Virus record (IMG/VR): IMGVR_UViG_3300037470_000672
Coordinates: 64,001-128,000 of that record
Length of the DNA stretch: 64,000 nt
Origin: a virus
Strand: one strand, 5' to 3'
In this document: piece by piece, positions 8,520-64,000 of the stretch
Position numbering within the stretch: the first letter of the stretch is position 1
How the letters are laid out: each line of letters begins with the position of its first letter
Position numbers and translations under genes: made by a program
Notes under the pieces: model-generated
What the model saw: the letters and a program-made list of their open reading frames with translations, nothing else
What the model was told of the DNA's origin: nothing
Databases searched by the model: none

Positions 8520-10751
8520 TCAGGACACACCCGGTCCGCGGCTGATGAACATCGGCATGTAGAGCACATCCACTGTTGTGGCGACGCCGTCAGCGCCTTG
8601 AACGATGCCGACCTGGAAGACAACGCGGTTGTTCGCTCCTGCGGGGATGGACGTGTCTACCTGACCCGCCGTAGTCGACAGGTAGCAGGGAAGGCCGTTG
8701 AAAGCCGACGCAGGGGCAGACACGAAGCGAATCGGAACCAAAGACCCTGGCGCGGTGTAAATCTGCGCCGGGTTGCCTGCCGTCGCTGCCGCTCGGGTCA
8801 CGCCCGTTACCAGCCCATCGGATAGTGTTCCGGTGTCGGCATCTGCTAGGCCGACGTCTCCGTCAGATTCGATCTGTACGACGTCTCCTGCCGTCAGCGT
8901 GTCGTTGGTCGTGAAGATGAGACCGGCGCCGCCTGCGATGTTGCTGAACTGCGGAAGGTCAACCTTCTCCAACCCCGCCGTTGAGTCCAAGACGAGAAAG
9001 TCGTCCGCGCCGTCCGTGACGGTAAGCGCGGTCGCGCTCGCGTTGGGGATGGTGTAGGTCGAGTCATCTGCGGAGCTGAGCAACAGGCTGCCGCTCGTCG
9101 TAGTGCTCAGGGCGAGGTTGCCGGCGTCCGCCGTCACGTTGCTGGCGCCGGTGCCGTCAATCGAAAACGCACCGGTCGCAAGCATGTCGAACGTGCCGGT
9201 GACGTCGATGTCGAGGTTGGCGCCTGCGTTGATGTCGATCAATCCGCCGGCCGTCAGGTCGATCTCATCGTCCGATGAGACGAGCACGTTGCCCGTACCT
9301 GCCCCGGCGTTCGTGGCGCTGAGAGTCAGGTTCTCCGCACCGGCGCTGTTCCCGGTGACCGTCAGGTTGGAGCTGGTCACCGCGTCGAGGGAGATGCTCG
9401 TGGTGGCGTCGACCGTTACCGCAGTCCCGTCTACGTCTACGTTGACCGCGGCGTCGATGACCACGTCACCAGAGGTGGTCGTGTTGAGCGTCAGGTTCCC
9501 GGACGCCGCCGTGACGTTGGACGCCCCTGTCCCGTCGATGCTGAACGCCCCTGTCGCCAGGATGTCTACGGTCCCTGTGACATCGACATCCAGGTTGGCT
9601 CCGGCGTTGATGTCAACCAAGCCGCCTGCGGTGAGGTCGATCTCATCATCTGCGGAGAGGAGAACGTTCCCGGCACCGGCGCCTGCGTTGGTAGCCGCCA
9701 GCGTCAGGTTGATGGTCCCGGCGTCGTTGCCTGTGACCGTGAAGTTCGAGGAGGTGATGGCGTCCAGGGAGATGGATGCCGTGGCGTCGAAGAGGATGTT
9801 CGCCGCGTCTGCGTCGATGTCGCCTGTGGCGTTGAGGACTACGTTCCCGGACGTAGTTGTGCTGAGCGTCAGGTTTCCGGCGTCCACGGAGACGTTCGAT
9901 GCGGCTGTGCCGTCGATGGAAAACCCGTTGGTGCCCGACATCTGGACGTCGAAGACCGTCCCATCGAAGTCGAGCTGGGTATCGATGTCGATACCCCCGG
10001 TCGCAGTGATGAGGAGCTGCTCGGTGCCGGAGATGACAACGTCACCCTCAGCCGCCGACGTCGTGATCGTGTTGCCGTTTTCGTACGCTGTTTGGAGCGT
10101 TACCGCCGAAGCTGAGATGTCGGAGAACGACAACGGTGTAGAGCTACCGAAAGCGGTCTCCCAGGCGCCGTCCGCGCCTGCCCGCATGACGGACACGTTG
10201 ACCTTGCGGATCGTGCCCTGGGCTGTGTTGTCCGTATCGAACTGGTTCTGGGTGAAGTCCTCGTCCGTGGCGGTTGTGCCGATGCCGCGGATGGTCAGGG
10301 TGGTGCCGACGTGGCTGAGTACCTCGAACAGCCCGTTGTTCTGCGGATCGGCGGCGCCTGTGATCTGAATCAGATCACCAGCCGCGAACGTAGCCGTTCC
10401 TGTCGTGACCACCGTCGGGTTGGAGGTCGCCGGAACTCCGGCCGTGAACCCTCCCGCAGCGACGGTATCGTTCGTAGAGGTCGGAAGGTAGTTGACAACC
10501 AAGCCGCCCGTTTGGGCGGCCACCGTTTCGTACCCGCTGTTCAGGTAGAGGTGGTTATCGTCGAAGGAAACAGTCTCGGCCTGCTCCGTAACCATCGCAC
10601 CGCGAACCGTGAGGTTCGCGGTAATCAGTACATCGTTTTGAAGCTCCATCCGAGCACTGATCTGGAGATTGTCAGCCGCCTCGATGGTTCGAGGGAGAAA
10701 CGGCGCGGAGGCGTCCAAGATCTGGATGTTGTCTACTTGGTTTCCGGCCAC
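8520..10751 (-). CDS. Head/whisker fibre-like protein with internal repeats
   Basis: 743 aa, about 2.3 copies of a ~120-aa repeat (FSIDGTGASNVT...DDEIDLTAGGL); C-terminal domain paralogous to that of 10760..11524. Confidence 0.7.
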   Translation of the reverse strand: MAGNQVDNIQILDASAPFLPRTIEAADNLQISARMELQNDVLITANLTVRGAMVTEQAETVSFDDNHLYLNSGYETVAAQTGGLVVNYLPTSTNDTVAAGGFTAGVPATSNPTVVTTGTATFAAGDLIQITGAADPQNNGLFEVLSHVGTTLTIRGIGTTATDEDFTQNQFDTDNTAQGTIRKVNVSVMRAGADGAWETAFGSSTPLSFSDISASAVTLQTAYENGNTITTSAAEGDVVISGTEQLLITATGGIDIDTQLDFDGTVFDVQMSGTNGFSIDGTAASNVSVDAGNLTLSTTTSGNVVLNATGDIDADAANILFDATASISLDAITSSNFTVTGNDAGTINLTLAATNAGAGAGNVLLSADDEIDLTAGGLVDINAGANLDVDVTGTVDILATGAFSIDGTGASNVTAASGNLTLNTTTSGDVVIDAAVNVDVDGTAVTVDATTSISLDAVTSSNLTVTGNSAGAENLTLSATNAGAGTGNVLVSSDDEIDLTAGGLIDINAGANLDIDVTGTFDMLATGAFSIDGTGASNVTADAGNLALSTTTSGSLLLSSADDSTYTIPNASATALTVTDGADDFLVLDSTAGLEKVDLPQFSNIAGGAGLIFTTNDTLTAGDVVQIESDGDVGLADADTGTLSDGLVTGVTRAAATAGNPAQIYTAPGSLVPIRFVSAPASAFNGLPCYLSTTAGQVDTSIPAGANNRVVFQVGIVQGADGVATTVDVLYMPMFISRGPGVS

Positions 10752-12557: not shown

Positions 12558-13355
12558 TCAGGTCGTGGGATCTAGGATCTTACTCCTGGCACCGAGAGAA
12601 TACGGCGCCAAGCCGAAGTCGACAGGCGTGAGTGGCTGGGAACGCGGCGTAGGCGCAAACCGCACAGCTCCGTCTAGAGCGTCGGTTGCGGACGGGAAGT
12701 GTACCTGCCCTTGGTACTGCGCCGACTGAGCAAAGGCCATGTTCACGGCAACTATACGCGGTAACCCGCTCGGAAAGAACGCCTCAAAGGTTACGTCACA
12801 CAACGTCATGAACGCAATAATAGAGTCTCGTGCGGTAGACGAAGCTTGCCCCCCGTACAAGCCTATTCCGGAGTTGGGGAGGTAGAGCTTGACCTTGCGC
12901 GGAGCGAAGACCGTGGTGGTTCCTACAGACCCCTCCGGCCCGTACCGAGGAAGGATGTGTCGCCGGAGCCAGACGATAGCCGCGCGTATGTCGACGTTTC
13001 GATCAATGGCTCCGATGTTGGCTAGTGCTGCCAATCTAGCCGTGTTCACTTGCTGACCGGGCTGACCGCTAGCAGTGATCGTCAGGTCTATGTCTGTCGT
13101 GAAGACGGCCGTAAAGGTAATGAGCCGTTCACCGGTGCTCATCCACTGGTACAGCGGGAGGGTCGCCCCTGGAATCTCTTTGGGGTTGTAGTTGACCTGT
13201 TTTTGGTCGTTCAGCGAGTCGGGGAAATACTGGAAGCGCAGGAAGTCCCCTATCGGGGTGTCGTCCTGATCGTCCAGGGTCAGAAGAAGCGCATCTGCCC
13301 GCTTTTCGTTGTGAACGGGGTTGAGCGCGCTGGCTAGTGATCTCAGCGCGACCAT
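12558..13355 (-). CDS. Contractile-system tube-initiator-like protein (CIS tube type)
   Basis: FQYFPDSLNDQKQVNY...IPGATLPLYQWMSTGERLITFTAVF...FFPSGLPRIVAVNMAF. Confidence 0.7.
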   Translation of the reverse strand: MVALRSLASALNPVHNEKRADALLLTLDDQDDTPIGDFLRFQYFPDSLNDQKQVNYNPKEIPGATLPLYQWMSTGERLITFTAVFTTDIDLTITASGQPGQQVNTARLAALANIGAIDRNVDIRAAIVWLRRHILPRYGPEGSVGTTTVFAPRKVKLYLPNSGIGLYGGQASSTARDSIIAFMTLCDVTFEAFFPSGLPRIVAVNMAFAQSAQYQGQVHFPSATDALDGAVRFAPTPRSQPLTPVDFGLAPYSLGARSKILDPTT

Positions 13356-13370
13356 GCGTTCCCTTCTGGG

Positions 13371-13718
13371 CTACGCGGCTTTCTTCTTGCCGCTGGCCTT
13401 CTTCTTCTTTCCACGACGCCAGGCGCCGTACTTCTCACGATAGGCCGCGTTGTACCCTGCCTTGTAGGCGGGGTTCACGCTGAAGCGCTTGGTCTGACCG
13501 TTCGGACCGGAGCACTGGCACTGGTAGTTGGCGCATCGGCAACTCCAGTCATCGGTCTCGCCACGCGGTGTGCTCTTGTAGCCCGGAAGGTTCGCACCAC
13601 CGATGTCCGAACCGCCACGCGGTCCCGTAGCGTTGAAGGGGTTTTGCTCCTTCTCCGCCAGGCTTCGATCGAATTCGAGGAAGACTGCGCTCAGTTCTTC
13701 AAGAAGGTCTTCGTTCAC
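13371..13718 (-). CDS. Small Cys-containing protein with basic tail
   Basis: MNEDLLEE..., CRCANYQCQC, C-terminal RRGKKKKASGKKKAA. Confidence 0.65.
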   Translation of the reverse strand: MNEDLLEELSAVFLEFDRSLAEKEQNPFNATGPRGGSDIGGANLPGYKSTPRGETDDWSCRCANYQCQCSGPNGQTKRFSVNPAYKAGYNAAYREKYGAWRRGKKKKASGKKKAA

Positions 13719-14131
13719 GCTGCGACCCCATCAGCCGCCGCGGCTGGGTTTGGGTACTCTTTGAGCTTCGCTTCCCAATTCACTTCTTCTACACGGTATA
13801 CCGAAACGAGGCGAAGCTCAAACTCCGGATCTGCCCTCAGAACATGGCGGAAATCTCCACTTCGATCCGGGTTGAACATGAAAAACGTACCCAGTTTGCC
13901 GGTTCGGCGGTTCTTGGACAGACCGAGAAAAGCGCCGGGAGTCGCACGTCGGAGCTGCTTGTGCGCATCCGAGGAGCCGTGCGGAGCAAGTACCCCACAC
14001 AAGCGCTTCCAGTCATACCGTACAGCTTTGGCGCCTTTCCGAGCGACGAAACGATCGGCGCGAACGTGGCACTCCGTCAGGACAACGTCTGTCCCGCCTT
14101 CAGCTTGCACACCTACCACATGGTCTACCAT
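13715..14131 (-). CDS. Hypothetical protein (start revised to MVDHVV)
   Basis: ATG at 14131 lies after upstream stop (14163) and the palindrome. Confidence 0.55.
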   Translation of the reverse strand: MVDHVVGVQAEGGTDVVLTECHVRADRFVARKGAKAVRYDWKRLCGVLAPHGSSDAHKQLRRATPGAFLGLSKNRRTGKLGTFFMFNPDRSGDFRHVLRADPEFELRLVSVYRVEEVNWEAKLKEYPNPAAAADGVAA

Positions 14132-14143
14132 GGGAAATTCTCG

Positions 14144-14161
14144 TCCGCCCGTACGGGCGGA
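14144..14161. repeat. Palindrome family copy 1 (TCCGCCCGTACGGGCGGA)
   Basis: Perfect 18-bp palindrome; identical 16-bp core at 28764 and 60271; lies just after a stop codon. Confidence 0.9.
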
Positions 14162-14162
14162 T

Positions 14163-14447
14163 TCAGCGGGCGCCTGTGATTGGCTTCCCCTCACCGAGGG
14201 CTTGCAGCGACGCTTCGACGCTCTCACGCAGGTGCAGCAGAATCTGCTTGGCCTCCTCGAACTGGTCGCCGCGGATGGCCTGGAGCGCGTGCCCGAGCGT
14301 CGCCTGATGCACCGAGATCGACTCGTAGGCGGTTTTCTTGTTCACCCCGAGCTGCTCGGGGGTCTTGGACAGACGCCAACCTGCGTAGGGGCCGTCCCCT
14401 AAGGCGACGCTGCGCATCTCTTCAAGGAGGCTGTTCGGGTTGCTCAT
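14163..14447 (-). CDS. Hypothetical protein MSNPNSLLEE (alternative in-frame start at 14486 inside the repeat)
   Basis: GGAG 5 nt before ATG at 14447. Confidence 0.65.
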   Translation of the reverse strand: MSNPNSLLEEMRSVALGDGPYAGWRLSKTPEQLGVNKKTAYESISVHQATLGHALQAIRGDQFEEAKQILLHLRESVEASLQALGEGKPITGAR

Positions 14448-14459
14448 GCAGGCTCCGGC

Positions 14460-14562
14460 GTCTCGGAATTTCAAATATCCGAGCATCTGTTCATTGGTGC
14501 GGGCCATATCCACCGGATTGGCCGTGGTCTCGGAATTTCAAAGATCCGAGCATCTTTTCAAC
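14460..14562 (-). repeat. Repeat-spacer-repeat unit (CRISPR-like mini-array; 34-36 nt repeats, 33-nt spacer)
   Basis: 14460-14493 and 14527-14560 match at 32/34; internal inverted repeat CTCGGA-N10-TCCGAG; no cas genes in window. Confidence 0.85.
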
Positions 14563-14564
14563 GG

Positions 14565-14918
14565 CTAAACAGCCGCGACGAACAACTCCTCGTTGTCACG
14601 CACGTCGGCCTGCGCCCCGATGCCGAAGGTCACGTCGCCACGGTTGACGAGGATGTTCCACTCCTCACCGGGTTCGAGACCATCGCCATCCATCGCCGAC
14701 TGGGACTTGCTGTGGTGGAAGTCCCGCGGGTGCATCGGCAACTCCACAGAAGAGCCGAACTCCAACGTGCCGTTGGCATCGGGCAGGTTCGCCGGCTCGT
14801 TGAAGGGGTAGGGGAGCGGATCCTCGCGCTGCCCGCCAGTGGCGAGACCGTCCTCGCCCAGACCCAGGCGGTTGAGGGTCTTGTTCGGATCCGTGGTATT
14901 TTCGATCGTAACGATCAC
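14565..14918 (-). CDS. Hypothetical, possibly decoration protein
   Basis: 117 aa, GGAGG RBS before GTG. Confidence 0.65.
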   Translation of the reverse strand: MIVTIENTTDPNKTLNRLGLGEDGLATGGQREDPLPYPFNEPANLPDANGTLEFGSSVELPMHPRDFHHSKSQSAMDGDGLEPGEEWNILVNRGDVTFGIGAQADVRDNEELFVAAV

Positions 14919-14954
14919 GTCATCCTCCGTACCCCTGTACAGGGTGTAGGCGCA

Positions 14955-14983
14955 ACAATACTCTCCGTCAGATCAAGGGTCAA
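14955..14983 (-). promoter_or_regulatory. Sigma70-like promoter TTGACC-17-TATTGT
   Basis: Intergenic, -35 at 14978-14983, -10 at 14955-14960, exact 17-nt spacing. Confidence 0.55.
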
Positions 14984-14990
14984 GCAACCC

Positions 14991-15395
14991 CTAATCCCCT
15001 GCCATGGACACGATGACCACCATGTCCACCGTCCCACCGTTGTTCACGGTGAGGGACGTGATGCCCGGGTGGGTGACCGCCAAAAACCCCACCTTGGTGG
15101 TGCCGAGCGGGGTGACGGGAAGAACCTCGGCGCCGCCGTTGAGCGCGAAGTCGAGCTGCGTCGGGGTATCCGTCTCCGTCTTGGGGCTCGTCCGCACGTA
15201 GAGGAACTTCGCCGAGGCGATGCTGGGGCAGGGGATTACCTGCCCGGCAGCGCCTGCCGGGACGACCACCTTCTGGGTAGCGCCTTCGCCTAGGTCATCG
15301 GTCTGAACCTCGTGGGAGAGGTTGCCCAGGTCTTTCTCCTCCGCTGTGGTGGATGAGATGCCTACCTCGGCCTTGAAGCGGGCGCGTACGGACAT
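14991..15395 (-). CDS. Hypothetical structural-type protein
   Basis: 134 aa beta-rich, AGGAG RBS. Confidence 0.65.
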   Translation of the reverse strand: MSVRARFKAEVGISSTTAEEKDLGNLSHEVQTDDLGEGATQKVVVPAGAAGQVIPCPSIASAKFLYVRTSPKTETDTPTQLDFALNGGAEVLPVTPLGTTKVGFLAVTHPGITSLTVNNGGTVDMVVIVSMAGD

Positions 15396-15407
15396 GGAGG
15401 GCTCCTG

Positions 15408-15698
15408 CTAAACGTCGGTGGCGTCAGACCACTCGGAGAGGGTCTTGAGGTAGGTGTAGGCTTGGGTGTGGGCGTTCGCGCCAGCCTTGTCAAAGGCAGT
15501 GAGCGTGTACGCCCACACCTTGAGCGGCGGATCGGCTGTCTTGGGGTCGACCTTGTAGGCGGTCGCCTCGGTCTGAGACCTGAAAGTCCCTAGCTTGATA
15601 GCGAGCGCACCGTCTCGCCCTGAGGCAACACGGAGCACCTGGTGGTAGGCGTTGGCCACCTGCACACTGCTGAGGGCGATGGTCTTCTGAAGAGCCAT
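15408..15698 (-). CDS. Tail fibre assembly chaperone-like, paralogue 2
   Basis: MALQKTIALSS...FDKAGANAHTQAYTYLK; follows fibre genes. Confidence 0.6.
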   Translation of the reverse strand: MALQKTIALSSVQVANAYHQVLRVASGRDGALAIKLGTFRSQTEATAYKVDPKTADPPLKVWAYTLTAFDKAGANAHTQAYTYLKTLSEWSDATDV

Positions 15699-15994
15699 CA
15701 CACATCCGTGGTGTCAGCGTCGAAGCCTGACTGACTGATCGGGTCTTTGAGCCAGTCGTACGCTTGGGTGTGGATGTTGTCAGTCACGTGAGCCTTGTCA
15801 AAGGAAAGCAATGCGTATTCTTTCTTCTCGACGGGAGGATCCCCAGCATCCGCCTGCGCCTGTCCCACGTAGGAGCAAAGTGTAAAGCGAACCCGATCCG
15901 GGTGAGCTTCATCCCATCGAAGGTGGGTGATCTTGTGATAGGCGTCTGTGAGCTGGACACCCGAAGCAGTCGTGACCGTCTTCTGAAGAGCCAT
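15698..15994 (-). CDS. Tail fibre assembly chaperone-like, paralogue 1 (start revised)
   Basis: MALQKTVTTAS...FDKAHVTDNIHTQAYDWLK; GGAG RBS; shares 19-nt identical stretch with paralogue 2. Confidence 0.6.
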   Translation of the reverse strand: MALQKTVTTASGVQLTDAYHKITHLRWDEAHPDRVRFTLCSYVGQAQADAGDPPVEKKEYALLSFDKAHVTDNIHTQAYDWLKDPISQSGFDADTTDV

Positions 15995-16005
15995 CAGGCT
16001 TTCTC

Positions 16006-28763: not shown

Positions 28764-28779
28764 CCGCCCGTACGGGCGG
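28764..28779. repeat. Palindrome family copy 2
   Basis: CCGCCCGTACGGGCGG between TAA (28781) and GGGAGG RBS of the wedge gene. Confidence 0.9.
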
Positions 28780-56495: not shown

Positions 56496-56520
56496 GTCTC
56501 GGAATTTCAAAGATCCGAAC
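56496..56520 (-). repeat. Hairpin-repeat copy directly abutting the gp13 RBS
   Basis: 24/25 identity to 14527 copy; followed immediately by AGGAG. Confidence 0.9.
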
Positions 56521-56558
56521 GCTCTTCTGTGCATCCTTTCATCGCTGGGACGACGGGA

Positions 56559-60137: not shown

Positions 60138-61928
60138 CTACGAGGCCGACAGTCGCTTGATTTCATCGAGAGAAAGGCCGGTGCCGTTGTAACTCGCCCC
60201 GGATCGAGCGTCGCTGCTTGCGTGAGCTTCCATCACCGGTTCGTTCGGGTTGGAAATGTCGTAGTCCAATCCGCCCGTACGGGCGGATTGGGGCAGTTGG
60301 GGCGCCGGCTCGACATGGCTGACGGAGTTGGAGCCTGCCAAAGCGCGCACACGGGCACGGATGGCATCGACCTGGTCCGATTCGGACATCGGGCGGCGGA
60401 ACTGGTCCAACACCTGATCCACTTCCGCTCGGTTGGTCGGCGGGTTCTCCTCGAAGTGGCTGACCATCTCCGCACGGCGGGGGTGGTGACGAAGTCGCTC
60501 GGCGATGTAGGCGTCGATCGCTTGGGCCTTGTTGAGAGTTACCGACTTCTCCAACGCCTCTTTGAGCTGGGTCATCTGCGTTTCGAGGGCCTGAACTCGC
60601 CGATCGGACTCAGACTTGACCTTGTTCATCTCCTTCTGCCGCGCGTCCTCTTGTGCCTTCTTCTCGGCCGCGCGGCGATCCAGCTCTTCTTGGACAGCGG
60701 AGACCTTGGTGGCGATCTCTTCAACAGATCCGTAGCTCGCCACGTCACCGACGATGCTGCGGATCAGATCGGCGTCGGCGCTCCCTTGAAGCTGTTGCTC
60801 CAGATAGAAGCGGTAGCCTGCCTTCTTGGCCATCGCTGCGAGCTTGTTGACCTGGTCTTCGAGCTGGACCTTCTCCTTGGAAAAGGAGCTGCGCTCGGTC
60901 GCGAGCTGGCCTTCCAGCTTGTCGATGCGGTCTTCGAGCTTGGCGACGACCGATTCCTCATCCTCGGAGAGGACGTAGGGTCGGATGACGGTCTTGATCT
61001 GTTCGACCGCCTTCATCGCGCCAGCCAACTTCGGATCGGAGAGCATGTCACCACGAACCTGCTCGGCAATCTGCTCTTTGGCGTCGACGATCTGCTGGGT
61101 CACCTTCTCGGTGACCTGTTTGACCGCCTCGTCCTTGCCCTTTTCGCGCCCGGCCTCTTCGGCTTGGAGGACGCGCTTCTCGGCATCCTCGGTGAGCTTG
61201 GCGAGTAGGGCATCTTTTTCGGCGAGCTGCTCTTGCATCTCTCGGGTCGCCTGGGCCGAGATGGCTTCAAACAGCTCGGGATGCTGTTCCTTGAGCTGCT
61301 CCTCGGTGAGGTCTTGGATCTCCATACTCAGGTTCCCCTTGTTCTCTTGGAAGGATTCTGGCCACGCATCGCGGTCTGCTGGATCGGCGACGGCGTCGAA
61401 GGTGACCAACCGGAAGCCGGGTTGGACTACAGATTCACCTTGCGCGTTGGTCCGTGTTGCGCCGAAGCCTCTGGAAGAAACACCGACCTGACAACCTGCT
61501 TCGACGATGGCTTTGAGGTTCTGTCCGCGCGCGGTGTTGAGAATCTCTGCTTCACCGTACATCACACCATCAGGTTGAAGGTCCAACTTTGTGATAACGT
61601 GAGAAATACGGTTGAGGCTTGTACGACCATCCAACGGATGGTCGGCTTCCCCGAATACACGACGCTGTTCAATCAGAGGTTGGAGGCGCTTCAGCTCCTC
61701 CGCTACGAGATTGCGCGGGTATAGGCGCTTGTTTTCGGTGGCCCGATCAGCGCGACCGAACTCACCCTTAAGGATCCACTTCTTCGGCGCACCCTCTACG
61801 ACTTCACGCTCTTCAACGACCAGAGGTGTCGACGGGTAGTAGACCCCTTCGATGAGACCCACCTGTCCCTGCGTGTCCTCCAAGAGGGCGCGACCGATTT
61901 TTTTGGCTGGGGTAGGGGGTGTACTCAT
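60138..61928 (-). CDS. gp21: Prohead protease (gp21-like) fused to coiled-coil scaffold
   Basis: NKRLYP, GEADHP, ISHVIT, GVSSRGFG, TFDAVADP; C-terminal ~400 aa charged helical. Confidence 0.9.
   Translation of the reverse strand: MSTPPTPAKKIGRALLEDTQGQVGLIEGVYYPSTPLVVEEREVVEGAPKKWILKGEFGRADRATENKRLYPRNLVAEELKRLQPLIEQRRVFGEADHPLDGRTSLNRISHVITKLDLQPDGVMYGEAEILNTARGQNLKAIVEAGCQVGVSSRGFGATRTNAQGESVVQPGFRLVTFDAVADPADRDAWPESFQENKGNLSMEIQDLTEEQLKEQHPELFEAISAQATREMQEQLAEKDALLAKLTEDAEKRVLQAEEAGREKGKDEAVKQVTEKVTQQIVDAKEQIAEQVRGDMLSDPKLAGAMKAVEQIKTVIRPYVLSEDEESVVAKLEDRIDKLEGQLATERSSFSKEKVQLEDQVNKLAAMAKKAGYRFYLEQQLQGSADADLIRSIVGDVASYGSVEEIATKVSAVQEELDRRAAEKKAQEDARQKEMNKVKSESDRRVQALETQMTQLKEALEKSVTLNKAQAIDAYIAERLRHHPRRAEMVSHFEENPPTNRAEVDQVLDQFRRPMSESDQVDAIRARVRALAGSNSVSHVEPAPQLPQSARTGGLDYDISNPNEPVMEAHASSDARSGASYNGTGLSLDEIKRLSAS
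60266..60291. repeat. Palindrome family copy 3 (26-bp perfect palindrome)
   Basis: CCAATCCGCCCGTACGGGCGGATTGG equals its reverse complement; inside scaffold CDS, ~185 nt upstream of capsid start. Confidence 0.9.
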
Positions 61929-62110: not shown

Positions 62111-63651
62111 TGCGGTCCTGGCTTGCCCTTCTCTTTCGCAGCCCACTGGGCCATCTTCTTGGCGCCGTACTTCTTCTGTCCGATGGCCGCCGCCACCGCT
62201 TTGGGATCTTGGATGTCGGGGCGCTTCTCCAACTCCTTCGCCAGGGCGGCGAAGCGACCCCCCTTTCCCGTCTCGGAATTCCAAGGATCCGAGCGTCCTT
62301 TCAACCCAAAAGGGGCCTTCTCAGCTTCCATGACGGCCTCCTCGGGGAGAAGGTGCTCGTAGCAGGCTGCGAGAAAGGTGATGTCGTTGTCGTCGATGGA
62401 TTCCTTCTTGTAGCCGTTCTTCTTTGCGGCCTTCATCCCCTTGACGACCTTCATCGCCTCATCGCCGGGCATGTTGGCGAGCTTCACACCCATCTCAACC
62501 ATACCTTGCACAGCGTCCAGGGTGTCATCCTCGGACATGGTCGCCATGCCGACGAGCTTGTTCTTAAGACCCCTCACGTATGCCGGGATGTCGTCATCGG
62601 AGAGCGACTCCAGCTTGACGGCGACGCCCTTCATGAGGGCCAAAGCGTCATCGTCCGACAGTCCTTCGAGCGCGCTTGCGGCAAGCGCGATGACAGCCAG
62701 GTCTGAACCCTCAACCTGGTCCTCCTCCTCCGAGTCGGCGAAGAGGCTCACGTCTTCGATGAGGTCGTCGTAAATCTCCAACATCTCCAGAAACGTGCTG
62801 AAGAAGAGCTTGAAGTCCTCTTCAAATTCCGCCGCGTCGGTGTCGCCCAACTCGTACTCATGCAACGTCTCTGCATAGTCAGCAGCGGTCTCGGCCAGGG
62901 CGTTGACGGCCTGGCAGAACTCGATGACGCCTTCGCGGATCTCGTCATCCCCCTCCTCATCGAAGAGGTCTGCCTCGACCATCTCGGCGAGGGTCTCCTC
63001 GACCGGGACGAGTTGATGGGCAAGATCGTTGGCAGCCAGCGAGAGCGACGCGAACGCCTGCGTGTTCTCCAACACCTTGGGCGCGAGCGAGACCTTACCG
63101 GCTGCCTCCATCAGATCGTTGAGATCGGCGATCAACGCCGTCAGCGCATCCGCCTCCACCCCTTCCTGTGCAGGCGACGGACGGCGCAACGTGATGCGCT
63201 TGACACCTGACTTGCGCAGGTGGCCGAGGCGGGACTGCGCTCGCTTGTAGAGGCGCTTGAAGCGTCGGCCCGCGGCCGATCGGCGCCACTTCTTGACCAT
63301 GCGCTTCTTGACGGCCTTGACACGGCGGTACTTGCGACGGGCGAGACGTCGTTCACGACGAATCTCAGCGCCGCGCTCCTGTCGCATAATACGTGCGGCT
63401 TGCTCAGACAAGTCCGCCAACTGGTCGTCGTCCAGATCTGCTTGGTCGAGAAGCCGGGAGATCTCCGCCGCGACGCGCGCCACGTCCAGATCGACCACTT
63501 CTGCTGGGTGAGGGTCTTCCTGACGAGTGGAGTCCTCCACGATAGGAGCAGACGGCGGGGGGTTGACGATTCGCTGCACCCTTTCATCATCGCGTACCAA
63601 CCCGATGAGGGCGAAGTCTTCGGCAAGAGAAGAGAGCTTGGGCTGGGTCAC
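62107..63651 (-). CDS. Prohead core protein (gp68-like basic segment plus acidic domain; start revised)
   Basis: GGAGG RBS before GTG 63651; RRERRLARRKYRR...KWRR basic run; C-terminal GGRFAAL...AAAIGQKKYG module. Confidence 0.65.
   Translation of the reverse strand: MTQPKLSSLAEDFALIGLVRDDERVQRIVNPPPSAPIVEDSTRQEDPHPAEVVDLDVARVAAEISRLLDQADLDDDQLADLSEQAARIMRQERGAEIRRERRLARRKYRRVKAVKKRMVKKWRRSAAGRRFKRLYKRAQSRLGHLRKSGVKRITLRRPSPAQEGVEADALTALIADLNDLMEAAGKVSLAPKVLENTQAFASLSLAANDLAHQLVPVEETLAEMVEADLFDEEGDDEIREGVIEFCQAVNALAETAADYAETLHEYELGDTDAAEFEEDFKLFFSTFLEMLEIYDDLIEDVSLFADSEEEDQVEGSDLAVIALAASALEGLSDDDALALMKGVAVKLESLSDDDIPAYVRGLKNKLVGMATMSEDDTLDAVQGMVEMGVKLANMPGDEAMKVVKGMKAAKKNGYKKESIDDNDITFLAACYEHLLPEEAVMEAEKAPFGLKGRSDPWNSETGKGGRFAALAKELEKRPDIQDPKAVAAAIGQKKYGAKKMAQWAAKEKGKPGPQ
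62270..62305 (-). repeat. Hairpin-repeat copy inside core-protein CDS
   Basis: 32/36 identity to 14527-14562. Confidence 0.9.
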
Positions 63652-64000
63652 GGCGAATCCTCCGGACTCACGTCGGCTTGGGCAGCAGCTTCTACAAAAC
63701 ACCGCGCCACAGAGATTGGAAAGAGAACTTCCGACAGAACGTTGCGAAAATCGGCAAGTGTGTTGACGCTCGCGTCCTGTTGGATTGTGAGCACCTTCTC
63801 CGCAGCGGTACTGACCGTCTCTAGGTGCTCGGACAACTCCACTTGGACCCTGTCCGCGAGGCTATCAGCGCCATCTCGGAATTCCAAAGAACCGAGCGGC
63901 CTCGCATCCCCAAAGTCGAAGCTGTTGAGCTTGTTGCGCTCATCCCTAAGCATGCGCACCAGGTCTTCAAGATCGGTAACGACCTGCATTCGGTCATCAT
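63648..64000 (-). CDS. Head-module protein, probably 5'-truncated by window edge
   Basis: Frame stays open beyond ATG 63989 to window end; stop coupled to next gene. Confidence 0.55.
   Translation of the reverse strand, partial: DDRMQVVTDLEDLVRMLRDERNKLNSFDFGDARPLGSLEFRDGADSLADRVQVELSEHLETVSTAAEKVLTIQQDASVNTLADFRNVLSEVLFPISVARCFVEAAAQADVSPEDSP
63874..63897 (-). repeat. Hairpin-repeat copy inside CDS
   Basis: 22/24 identity to core of 14527 copy. Confidence 0.8.

Follow-up and report, generated by a model that had tools for sequence, protein, structure and literature searches.

Two repeats separated by a single spacer lie between two genes of a phage genome, which raises the questions of whether they form a genuine CRISPR unit, which Cas protein they belong to and what they do at this position. 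The window, i.e., the whole 64,000-nt stretch of DNA analyzed, corresponds to bases 64001-128000 of a virus record of 175,906 bp with 60% G+C, and it contains the structural module of a myovirus (sheath, tape measure, baseplate wedge, major head protein, and protease). About nine out of ten rough gene calls were found on one strand, and the genes around the mini-array run along the minus strand.

Table 1. Repeats, arrays and neighboring features of the phage. Positions are those of the window unless marked as genome.
Feature	Position	Strand	Remark
Sigma-70-like promoter, TTGACC-17-TATTGT	14955..14983	-	1 site found vs 0.1 expected (shuffles)
Upstream ORF, 117 aa, GTG start after GGAGGA	14565..14918	-	Stop 2 nt before repeat 1
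Repeat 1, canonical Cas12m repeat	14527..14562	-	One loop base differs from main-array repeat
Spacer, unique, 31 nt, gene-strand start CACGGCCAATCC	14496..14526	-	No second copy or seed match in genome
Repeat 2, terminal repeat	14460..14495	-	3' 24 nt kept except C20A; 5' end diverged
Leader, 12 nt, GCCGGAGCCTGC, Shine-Dalgarno GGAG	14448..14459	-	Between repeat 2 and ATG 14447
Downstream ORF, 94 aa, all-helical ORFan	14163..14447	-	ATG at 14447
Palindromic hairpin CCGCCCGTACGGGCGG	14145..14160	.	2 nt past 94-aa ORF stop; one of 15 genome copies
Solitary repeat copy, 5' third diverged	56496..56531	-	Ends 10 nt before GTG (AGGAG) of 248-aa gene
Repeat copy in frame inside 531-aa ORF, read as LKGRSDPWNSET	62270..62305	-	
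Degenerate repeat copy in frame inside 304-aa ORF	63873..63908	-	
Main array, 6 repeats, spacers 37-42 nt	genome 3-419		
Cas-adjacent array, 3 repeats	genome 55989-56172		Starts 23 nt past cas12m stop codon
Convergent repeat pair	genome 62486/62562		

A repeat search returned a pair at 14455-14493 and 14522-14560 with 90% identity and a spacing of 67 nt, and a 28-nt pattern taken from the repeat matched exactly at two sites of the window, where 100 shuffles gave an expectation of 0.00. The repeat borders were set against the main array of the phage, which gave two minus-strand copies of 36 nt each, identical at 32 of the 36 positions. Read on the gene strand, the first copy starts with GTTGAAAAGATG and the second with AATGAACAGATG. 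An earlier note on this DNA had described two repeats around a unique spacer of 33 nt; the repeat pair was confirmed, while the spacer was found to be 31 nt long, because the first two diverged bases of repeat 2 had been counted in. The hairpin that the same note placed at the 3' end of the repeat is present on the gene strand, where CTCGGA and TCCGAG are separated by 10 nt and followed by AC (CUCGGA...UCCGAG in the RNA). Folding of the spacer itself, previously held against a CRISPR unit, was not exceptional (z = -2.1), and another spacer, from the main array, was found to have z = -3.6. The C20A change in repeat 2 disrupts stem 1 (helix 1). The last repeat of the cas-adjacent array carries the change too, and a start codon lies within 11-12 nt of the end of each of these two repeats.

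The unit had been described as lacking cas genes. This is correct within the 64-kb window but not genome-wide, and the phage is not Cas-less: the search for cas genes in the rest of the genome returned a full-length cas12m gene at genome 56196-57974 (minus strand, 592 aa), ~6 kb before the first base of the window and 20.5 kb from the mini-array. The protein matches the PADLOC Cas12u1 (V-U1) profile end to end (E 2e-103, residues 1-545) and the solved Cas12m structure PDB 23vw_A, entitled "CRISPR-associated DNA-binding protein Cas12m" (E 2e-80). All three RuvC motifs are present (AIDVGW, VLEKFD, and DQDENAA, a D-E-D triad). cas12m was found to be the only gene with a TNB domain in the genome, and Cas1 gave no match in the genome in a search whose control was positive in 7 of 14 genomes. 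Subtype V-U1 is now named V-M, and its effector Cas12m does not need a tracrRNA and itself processes pre-crRNA inside the repeat; it binds DNA without cutting it, beside T- or C-rich PAMs, and this includes D-E-D variants (PMC11013384). The Cas12m2 scaffold is the 36-nt repeat, whose pseudoknot helix is made of nucleotides -8 to -3, with A(-2) and C(-1) coming next, and only ~17 bp of the guide are read (PMC10442227).

The phage repeat has the same 3' end as the crRNA in the Cas12m2 structure, with the 3' arm at -8 to -3 and then AC. Its two helices pair positions 6-10 with 19-23 (helix 1) and 13-18 with 29-34 (helix 2), and since helix 1 crosses helix 2 the fold is an H-type pseudoknot. The two-stem layout was found in the same places, in wholly different letters, in the repeats beside four homologous cas12m genes (L016, L019, L020, and L021). 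We therefore consider it secure that the repeat is a Cas12m handle. The type V layout proposed for the unit stands, whereas the suggested Cas12j is replaced by V-M (Cas12m) on the basis of both effector and repeat structure: the effector is of the Cas12m family, the 36-nt pseudoknot repeat ends in AC, an array adjoins the effector and an adaptation module is absent, the latter being typical of V-M but not strictly defining. The element at 14460-14562 consists of a unique 31-nt spacer between two copies of a repeat that also builds a Cas-associated array; it is a true type V-M CRISPR unit, and its repeat is that of the phage's own Cas12m system. Neither a unit hijacking host Cas nor a decoy of the Racr kind needs to be invoked, as had been considered, since the phage itself encodes an effector, followed after 23 nt by the same repeat, and has a six-repeat array in addition, and no host repeat was found.

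Characterized V-M systems (MmCas12m2, GoCas12m, and MsCas12m; PMC10442227, PMC11013384; PDB 23vw, 8pm4) share with this phage the full-length effector homology, the 36-nt pseudoknot repeat with its -8 to -3 arm and AC, the array right after the effector and the lack of Cas1. They differ in that the system described here resides in a myovirus-type phage of ~176 kb with ~20 dispersed repeat copies at gene junctions, an arrangement that has no described counterpart in the characterized systems. The RuvC triad is D-E-D in the Cas12m of this phage and H-D-D in MmCas12m, and published D-E-D Cas12m proteins are also non-cutting; the phage protein is predicted to be a DNA binder. Myxophage MV-1 likewise encodes a compact Cas12m with an adjacent array and no adaptation genes, for which no protospacers were found, but that protein is a different one (610 aa compared to 592 aa here); the preprint calls it the first phage Cas12m, and its main text contains neither "solitary" nor "mini-array" (bioRxiv 10.64898/2026.09.14.751636).

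Among the Cas12m homologues one, L016, is encoded by a complete 109.7-kb phage with direct terminal repeats. Its Cas12m is 33% identical to the one described here, and its repeat, which occurs in an array of seven, has a different sequence. Allowing up to three mismatches, 11 copies of that repeat were found, none of them on the opposite strand, and the 21.6-kb locus contains a further two that are more diverged. Among the copies outside the array is a repeat-spacer-repeat unit ~150 nt upstream of the cas12m gene. Other Cas12m homologues were found in phage-like contexts with irregular, degenerate arrays (L145:7950-10150, L019:5730-5990, L020:11900-12390, and L021:2400-3050), where repeats are degenerate and spacings range from 38 to ~160 nt. 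These arrays do not look like the product of Cas1-Cas2 adaptation.

A census of the whole record gave 31 repeat copies, 30 of them on the gene strand. When as many as 6 mismatches to the 24-nt core were allowed, no further copy was found in the genome, and the reversed core used as control gave one match. Sixteen copies are solitary, and the ~20 dispersed copies are spread over 165 kb at gene junctions. When only copies followed by non-repeat sequence are considered, 10 of 20 end 10-26 nt before a start codon, and the sequence in between mostly contains GGAG, GGAGG, or GGGAGG. For two upstream genes the stop codon is the TGA at repeat positions 3-5. Three copies sit 4-9 nt past a palindromic hairpin and two sit 47-83 nt upstream of promoter-like sites. 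Two copies lie in frame within ORFs, and the codon-position G+C pattern typical of coding sequence carries on past both; in the copy at 62270-62305 the usual TGA is replaced by TGG, so the frame stays open. The 42-kb tail/head block has no repeat copy, and the copy at 56496-56531 is the last one, in gene order, before this repeat-free structural block. The sole copy on the opposite strand belongs to the pair at genome 62486-62597, 1.4 kb before the window, where it faces a normal copy across 40 nt directly past a palindromic hairpin. Of the genes following other repeat copies, one was found to encode an Xre-type HTH protein (genome 34900-35328; Xre/Cro-type, 142 aa), which starts 14 nt past a solitary repeat.

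The 23 copies outside the main array were aligned. The 3' 24 nt were nearly invariant, including the loop bases, while the 5' 11 nt drift. Such contiguous 3' conservation fits a protein-bound RNA scaffold, whereas a promoter made of two hexamers would not be expected to conserve its spacer. Across the alignment 86.7% of the cells of helix 1 and 96% of those of helix 2 were paired. Positions 8 and 21 covary (GC in 11 copies, AU in 5, GU in 4, and a mismatch in 1), but this is a single pair among related copies and not significant compared to shuffles, of which 40 out of 500 reach the observed score. Cells with G-U on the sense strand outnumbered those with A-C by 14 to 5 (p = 0.06). Stronger support for the scaffold comes from the homologous cas12m loci, whose repeats keep both helices. 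We regard it as likely that the dispersed copies act as sense-strand RNA. The unit at 14460-14562 is one member of a genome-wide family of handles, for which a use on the phage's own transcripts appears plausible.

The promoter-like site TTGACC-17-TATTGT noted previously upstream of the unit was recovered at 14983-14955 on the minus strand; genome-wide, such sigma-70-like sites numbered 33 on the gene strand and 7 on the opposite strand. The site is likely to be the start of the operon containing the mini-array, and the hairpin at 14145-14160 its probable end. Along the gene strand the order is promoter, 117-aa gene, repeat-spacer-repeat, GGAG, ATG, 94-aa gene, and hairpin, with the mini-array making up the entire intergenic gap between the two genes. 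Judged by this order, the two ORFan genes between one promoter-like site and one hairpin look like a two-gene operon. The 117-aa ORF had no Pfam or PHROG match and only weak, unnamed matches in the protein atlas. The 94-aa protein likewise had no Pfam match, a search of 5.8 billion proteins returned only the protein itself, and its structural model (four helices, pLDDT 76.6) had no fold match. The near neighbors of both ORFs had no Pfam match and two unnamed PHROG matches only. An Rfam scan of window positions 13000-16000 gave only a chance-level c-di-GMP-II match (E 0.8). Public automatic gene calls lengthen the 94-aa ORF to 116 aa, with a GTG start at 14513 and reading through repeat 2 (window 14448-14513, read as NEQMLGYLKFRD). 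This is possible because one frame of the repeat, and only one, is open. If the 116-aa reading is correct, repeat 2 belongs to a coding sequence; the GGAG ahead of the ATG at 14447 favors the 94-aa form.

What the unit does within this operon can be framed as a mechanism, which we consider about as probable as all its alternatives taken together: the mini-array would yield a crRNA, while Cas12m would also bind and cut the operon RNA at the repeats and so control the downstream mRNA, as a phage-wide layer on top of the crRNA function. One RNA for the whole operon would be made from the promoter at 14983-14955. Cas12m would recognize the pseudoknot scaffold, i.e., the 3' two-thirds of each repeat, and cut just upstream of it, as characterized Cas12m proteins do on pre-crRNA. 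Three products would be expected: an mRNA for the 117-aa gene; a single crRNA, made up of the handle and a spacer of which ~17-18 nt are read, for binding and silencing a DNA target; and the mRNA of the 94-aa gene, headed by a Cas12m handle 12 nt from the AUG. On this last RNA the Shine-Dalgarno sequence and the start codon would take the position of the guide, and occupancy by Cas12m is therefore expected to set translation or stability of the 94-aa mRNA. The layout of repeat, Shine-Dalgarno sequence and start codon recurs at nine other junctions, which suggests Cas12m-dependent RNA processing or control throughout the phage.

In its general form, this reading makes the DNA-binding Cas12m also an RNA-binding and RNA-cutting factor for phage operons, with the ~20 handles in leaders and at junctions forming a post-transcriptional regulon in which polycistronic RNAs are cut and ribosome-binding sites occupied. 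We propose this only tentatively and put it at slightly less than an even chance. Half of the solitary copies lie away from start codons, upstream of promoter-like sites, past hairpins or inside ORFs, so a single role in leader control cannot cover all copies, and the dispersed copies of the second phage, L016, are mostly not start-adjacent. Cas12m is established as acting on DNA, and we know of no Cas12m for which binding to a handle embedded in mRNA has been shown.

A simpler reading is that the mini-array makes one crRNA with which Cas12m silences a competing phage, a plasmid or a host gene, and that the intergenic site and the solitary copies are by-products of repeat recombination without a function in cis. 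Both the effector and the arrays are genuine, virus-borne mini-arrays acting in inter-viral conflict are, as far as PMC10120712 cites them, established, and the irregular, degenerate arrays beside related cas12m genes suggest that repeats are easily gained and lost. The spacer itself offers one candidate target, since its first 22 nt match the SU10-like portal gene of another phage contig (~60% GC). However, the same 22 nt were found at four loci in all, including unrelated CoA-ligase-like genes of bacteria, the matches encode the common peptide TANPVDM and none extends past 22 nt; for the first 18 nt there are matches in over 120 metagenome contigs, where unrelated genes code for TANPV(E/D). 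We therefore rejected these matches of 18-22 nt as targets, because they fall in unrelated genes sharing the motif TANPV(D/E)(M) and are at chance level. The sequence search suggested for the spacer gave no match in plasmids, and its matches in metagenomes and in one viral portal gene are not convincing as protospacers. The earlier statement that the spacer has no convincing match within the window was borne out and extends to the whole genome, with no match of at least 14 nt and no PAM-proximal seed of 10-12 nt elsewhere; nor did the other spacers and the leader "guides" of the phage have a meaningful match elsewhere in its own genome. By-products in decay would also not be expected to keep the 24-nt scaffold in all 23 copies outside the main array, to show a strand bias of 30 out of 31, or to end 10-26 nt before start codons in half of the cases. 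We consider this reading unlikely, though it is the strongest of the rivals. If leaders as well as spacers serve as guides, each solitary repeat would turn the first 17-20 nt of the next gene into a fixed guide that silences related phages without the insert, while the phage's own copy would escape, its PAM position being taken by the repeat. The geometry of the 10 copies next to start codons leads to this idea, and Cas12m depends on a T- or C-rich PAM (PMC11013384) where the repeat ends in GAC. No relative of the phage was found in the phage DNA collection or through the 922-aa neighbor protein and the 94-aa protein, and we rate such fixed guides as the least probable of all the readings.

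The two other rivals place the function in the repeat itself. As an element acting at the DNA level, it would be a promoter or a site for a phage regulator, so that a transcription unit would begin at every copy and the crRNAs would have separate starts. There is precedent in the type II-C arrays of Neisseria, where each crRNA is made from its own start. The copies point along transcription and many are at gene starts, three of them lie past a terminator-like hairpin at 4-9 nt, where a new transcript is expected, and one precedes the 42-kb structural block. In our own reading of the hexamers most dispersed copies carry TTGAAA-16-GAAATT, a weak -35/-10 pair, with GGAATT in the array copies. A sigma-70 promoter, with two hexamers 16-18 nt apart that are better conserved than the spacer between them, was nevertheless not found in the repeats: the conserved block is contiguous, conservation is lowest in the candidate -35 hexamer, and the stretch between the two hexamers is conserved to the same degree as they are. 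The promoter scan, moreover, found only the site at 14983-14955 and none inside the mini-array repeats, no gene of the sigma-70 family was found in the phage genome, and the conserved part of the repeat is the same stretch as the Cas12m scaffold, with the same sequence recurring in the arrays by cas12m. A search of the phage for a T7-type polymerase gave no match, though the positive control was likewise without a match. Altogether, we regard a DNA-level function as improbable. Still less probable, and in our view very unlikely, are RNA decoys, in which the handles would sequester a host Cas12m, or that of the phage itself, and so blunt targeting. Viral solitary repeat units acting as RNA anti-CRISPRs (Racr) are established for several CRISPR types; like the copies here they are single intergenic repeats expected to be Cas-bound as RNA, but they mimic host repeats, usually occur without cas genes and often come right after a promoter of their own (PMC10651486). 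With many intact handles in one genome, competition would be strong. In this phage, however, the repeat fits the phage's own effector, the cognate Cas12m, is present in ~20 copies and often abuts a ribosome-binding site, and the mini-array has no promoter of its own directly upstream. The similarity to a host CRISPR repeat class that such a function would entail was not seen: in 185,579 species genomes the repeat core had only two matches, both isolated and attributable to chance, and did not occur as an array, and it was absent from other IMG/VR and metagenome contigs.

Repeat-spacer-repeat units outside the main array are also known as CreA, crlRNA and standalone repeats, and may have regulatory roles (PMC10120712; bioRxiv 10.1101/2024.10.29.618823). 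Their spacers show partial complementarity to cas or cargo gene promoters, whereas the spacer of the mini-array has neither a seed nor a longer match in the genome, and thus no such complementarity to a promoter of its own cas or cargo genes. One-spacer arrays in viral genomes, as far as they are presented where PMC10120712 cites Medvedeva 2019, rely on host Cas and have spacers matching related viruses; here the effector is viral and the spacer has no convincing target. In the papers searched on Cas12m biochemistry, phage Cas12m, viral solitary repeats, and regulatory mini-arrays we found no description of a phage that spreads its own Cas12m handle over its gene junctions.

Cas12m is a small, non-cutting, programmable DNA binder under development for base and epigenome editing. 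Were Cas12m to act on the phage's transcripts as proposed, it would represent a class 2 effector that acts on self transcripts in nature, a new model for the organization of phage gene expression and an existing template for building Cas12m-controlled operons. The reading of viral solitary repeats, which are now mainly taken as decoys against host CRISPR, would change as well.

Several observations concern the spacers and the record as a whole. The DNA of the region and of the main array had no similarity to known phages, and the unit at 14460-14562 had no match in plasmids. Contigs from four sequencing runs (soil/sediment, 2019-2025) were identical to the window over 11 kb but break at the repeats, and they are therefore uninformative on spacer turnover; no RNA run was found among the sequencing runs listed as containing this DNA. 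For the second spacer of the cas-adjacent array the first 12 nt recur once on the gene strand, at genome 48660-48671 in a 244-aa gene; with ~0.2 such matches expected over eight spacers, this is probably due to chance. The ends of the contig overlap within the main CRISPR array (genome 1-420 and 175767-175906), and the end copy lacks three spacers. Since the contig end thus repeats the main array minus three spacers, the record is probably a closed circle or terminally redundant, with an array content that varies within the population; CheckV gives 83% and "linear." No Y1 transposase, which would point to a mobile-element origin, was found in the genome.

The palindrome CCGCCCGTACGGGCGG, often lengthened to CAATCCGCCCGTACGGGCGGATTG, was found to recur after gene ends without a T-run, with 15 copies genome-wide. 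Those in the window lie at 14145-14160, 28764-28779, and 60271-60286, with a weaker copy at 10504-10519. Its probable role is that of a terminator used throughout the phage or of a hairpin at RNA 3' ends. Just past the window, at genome 128618-132745, lies a T4-like portal gene of 1375 aa that is interrupted by intein, HNH, and HTH domains.
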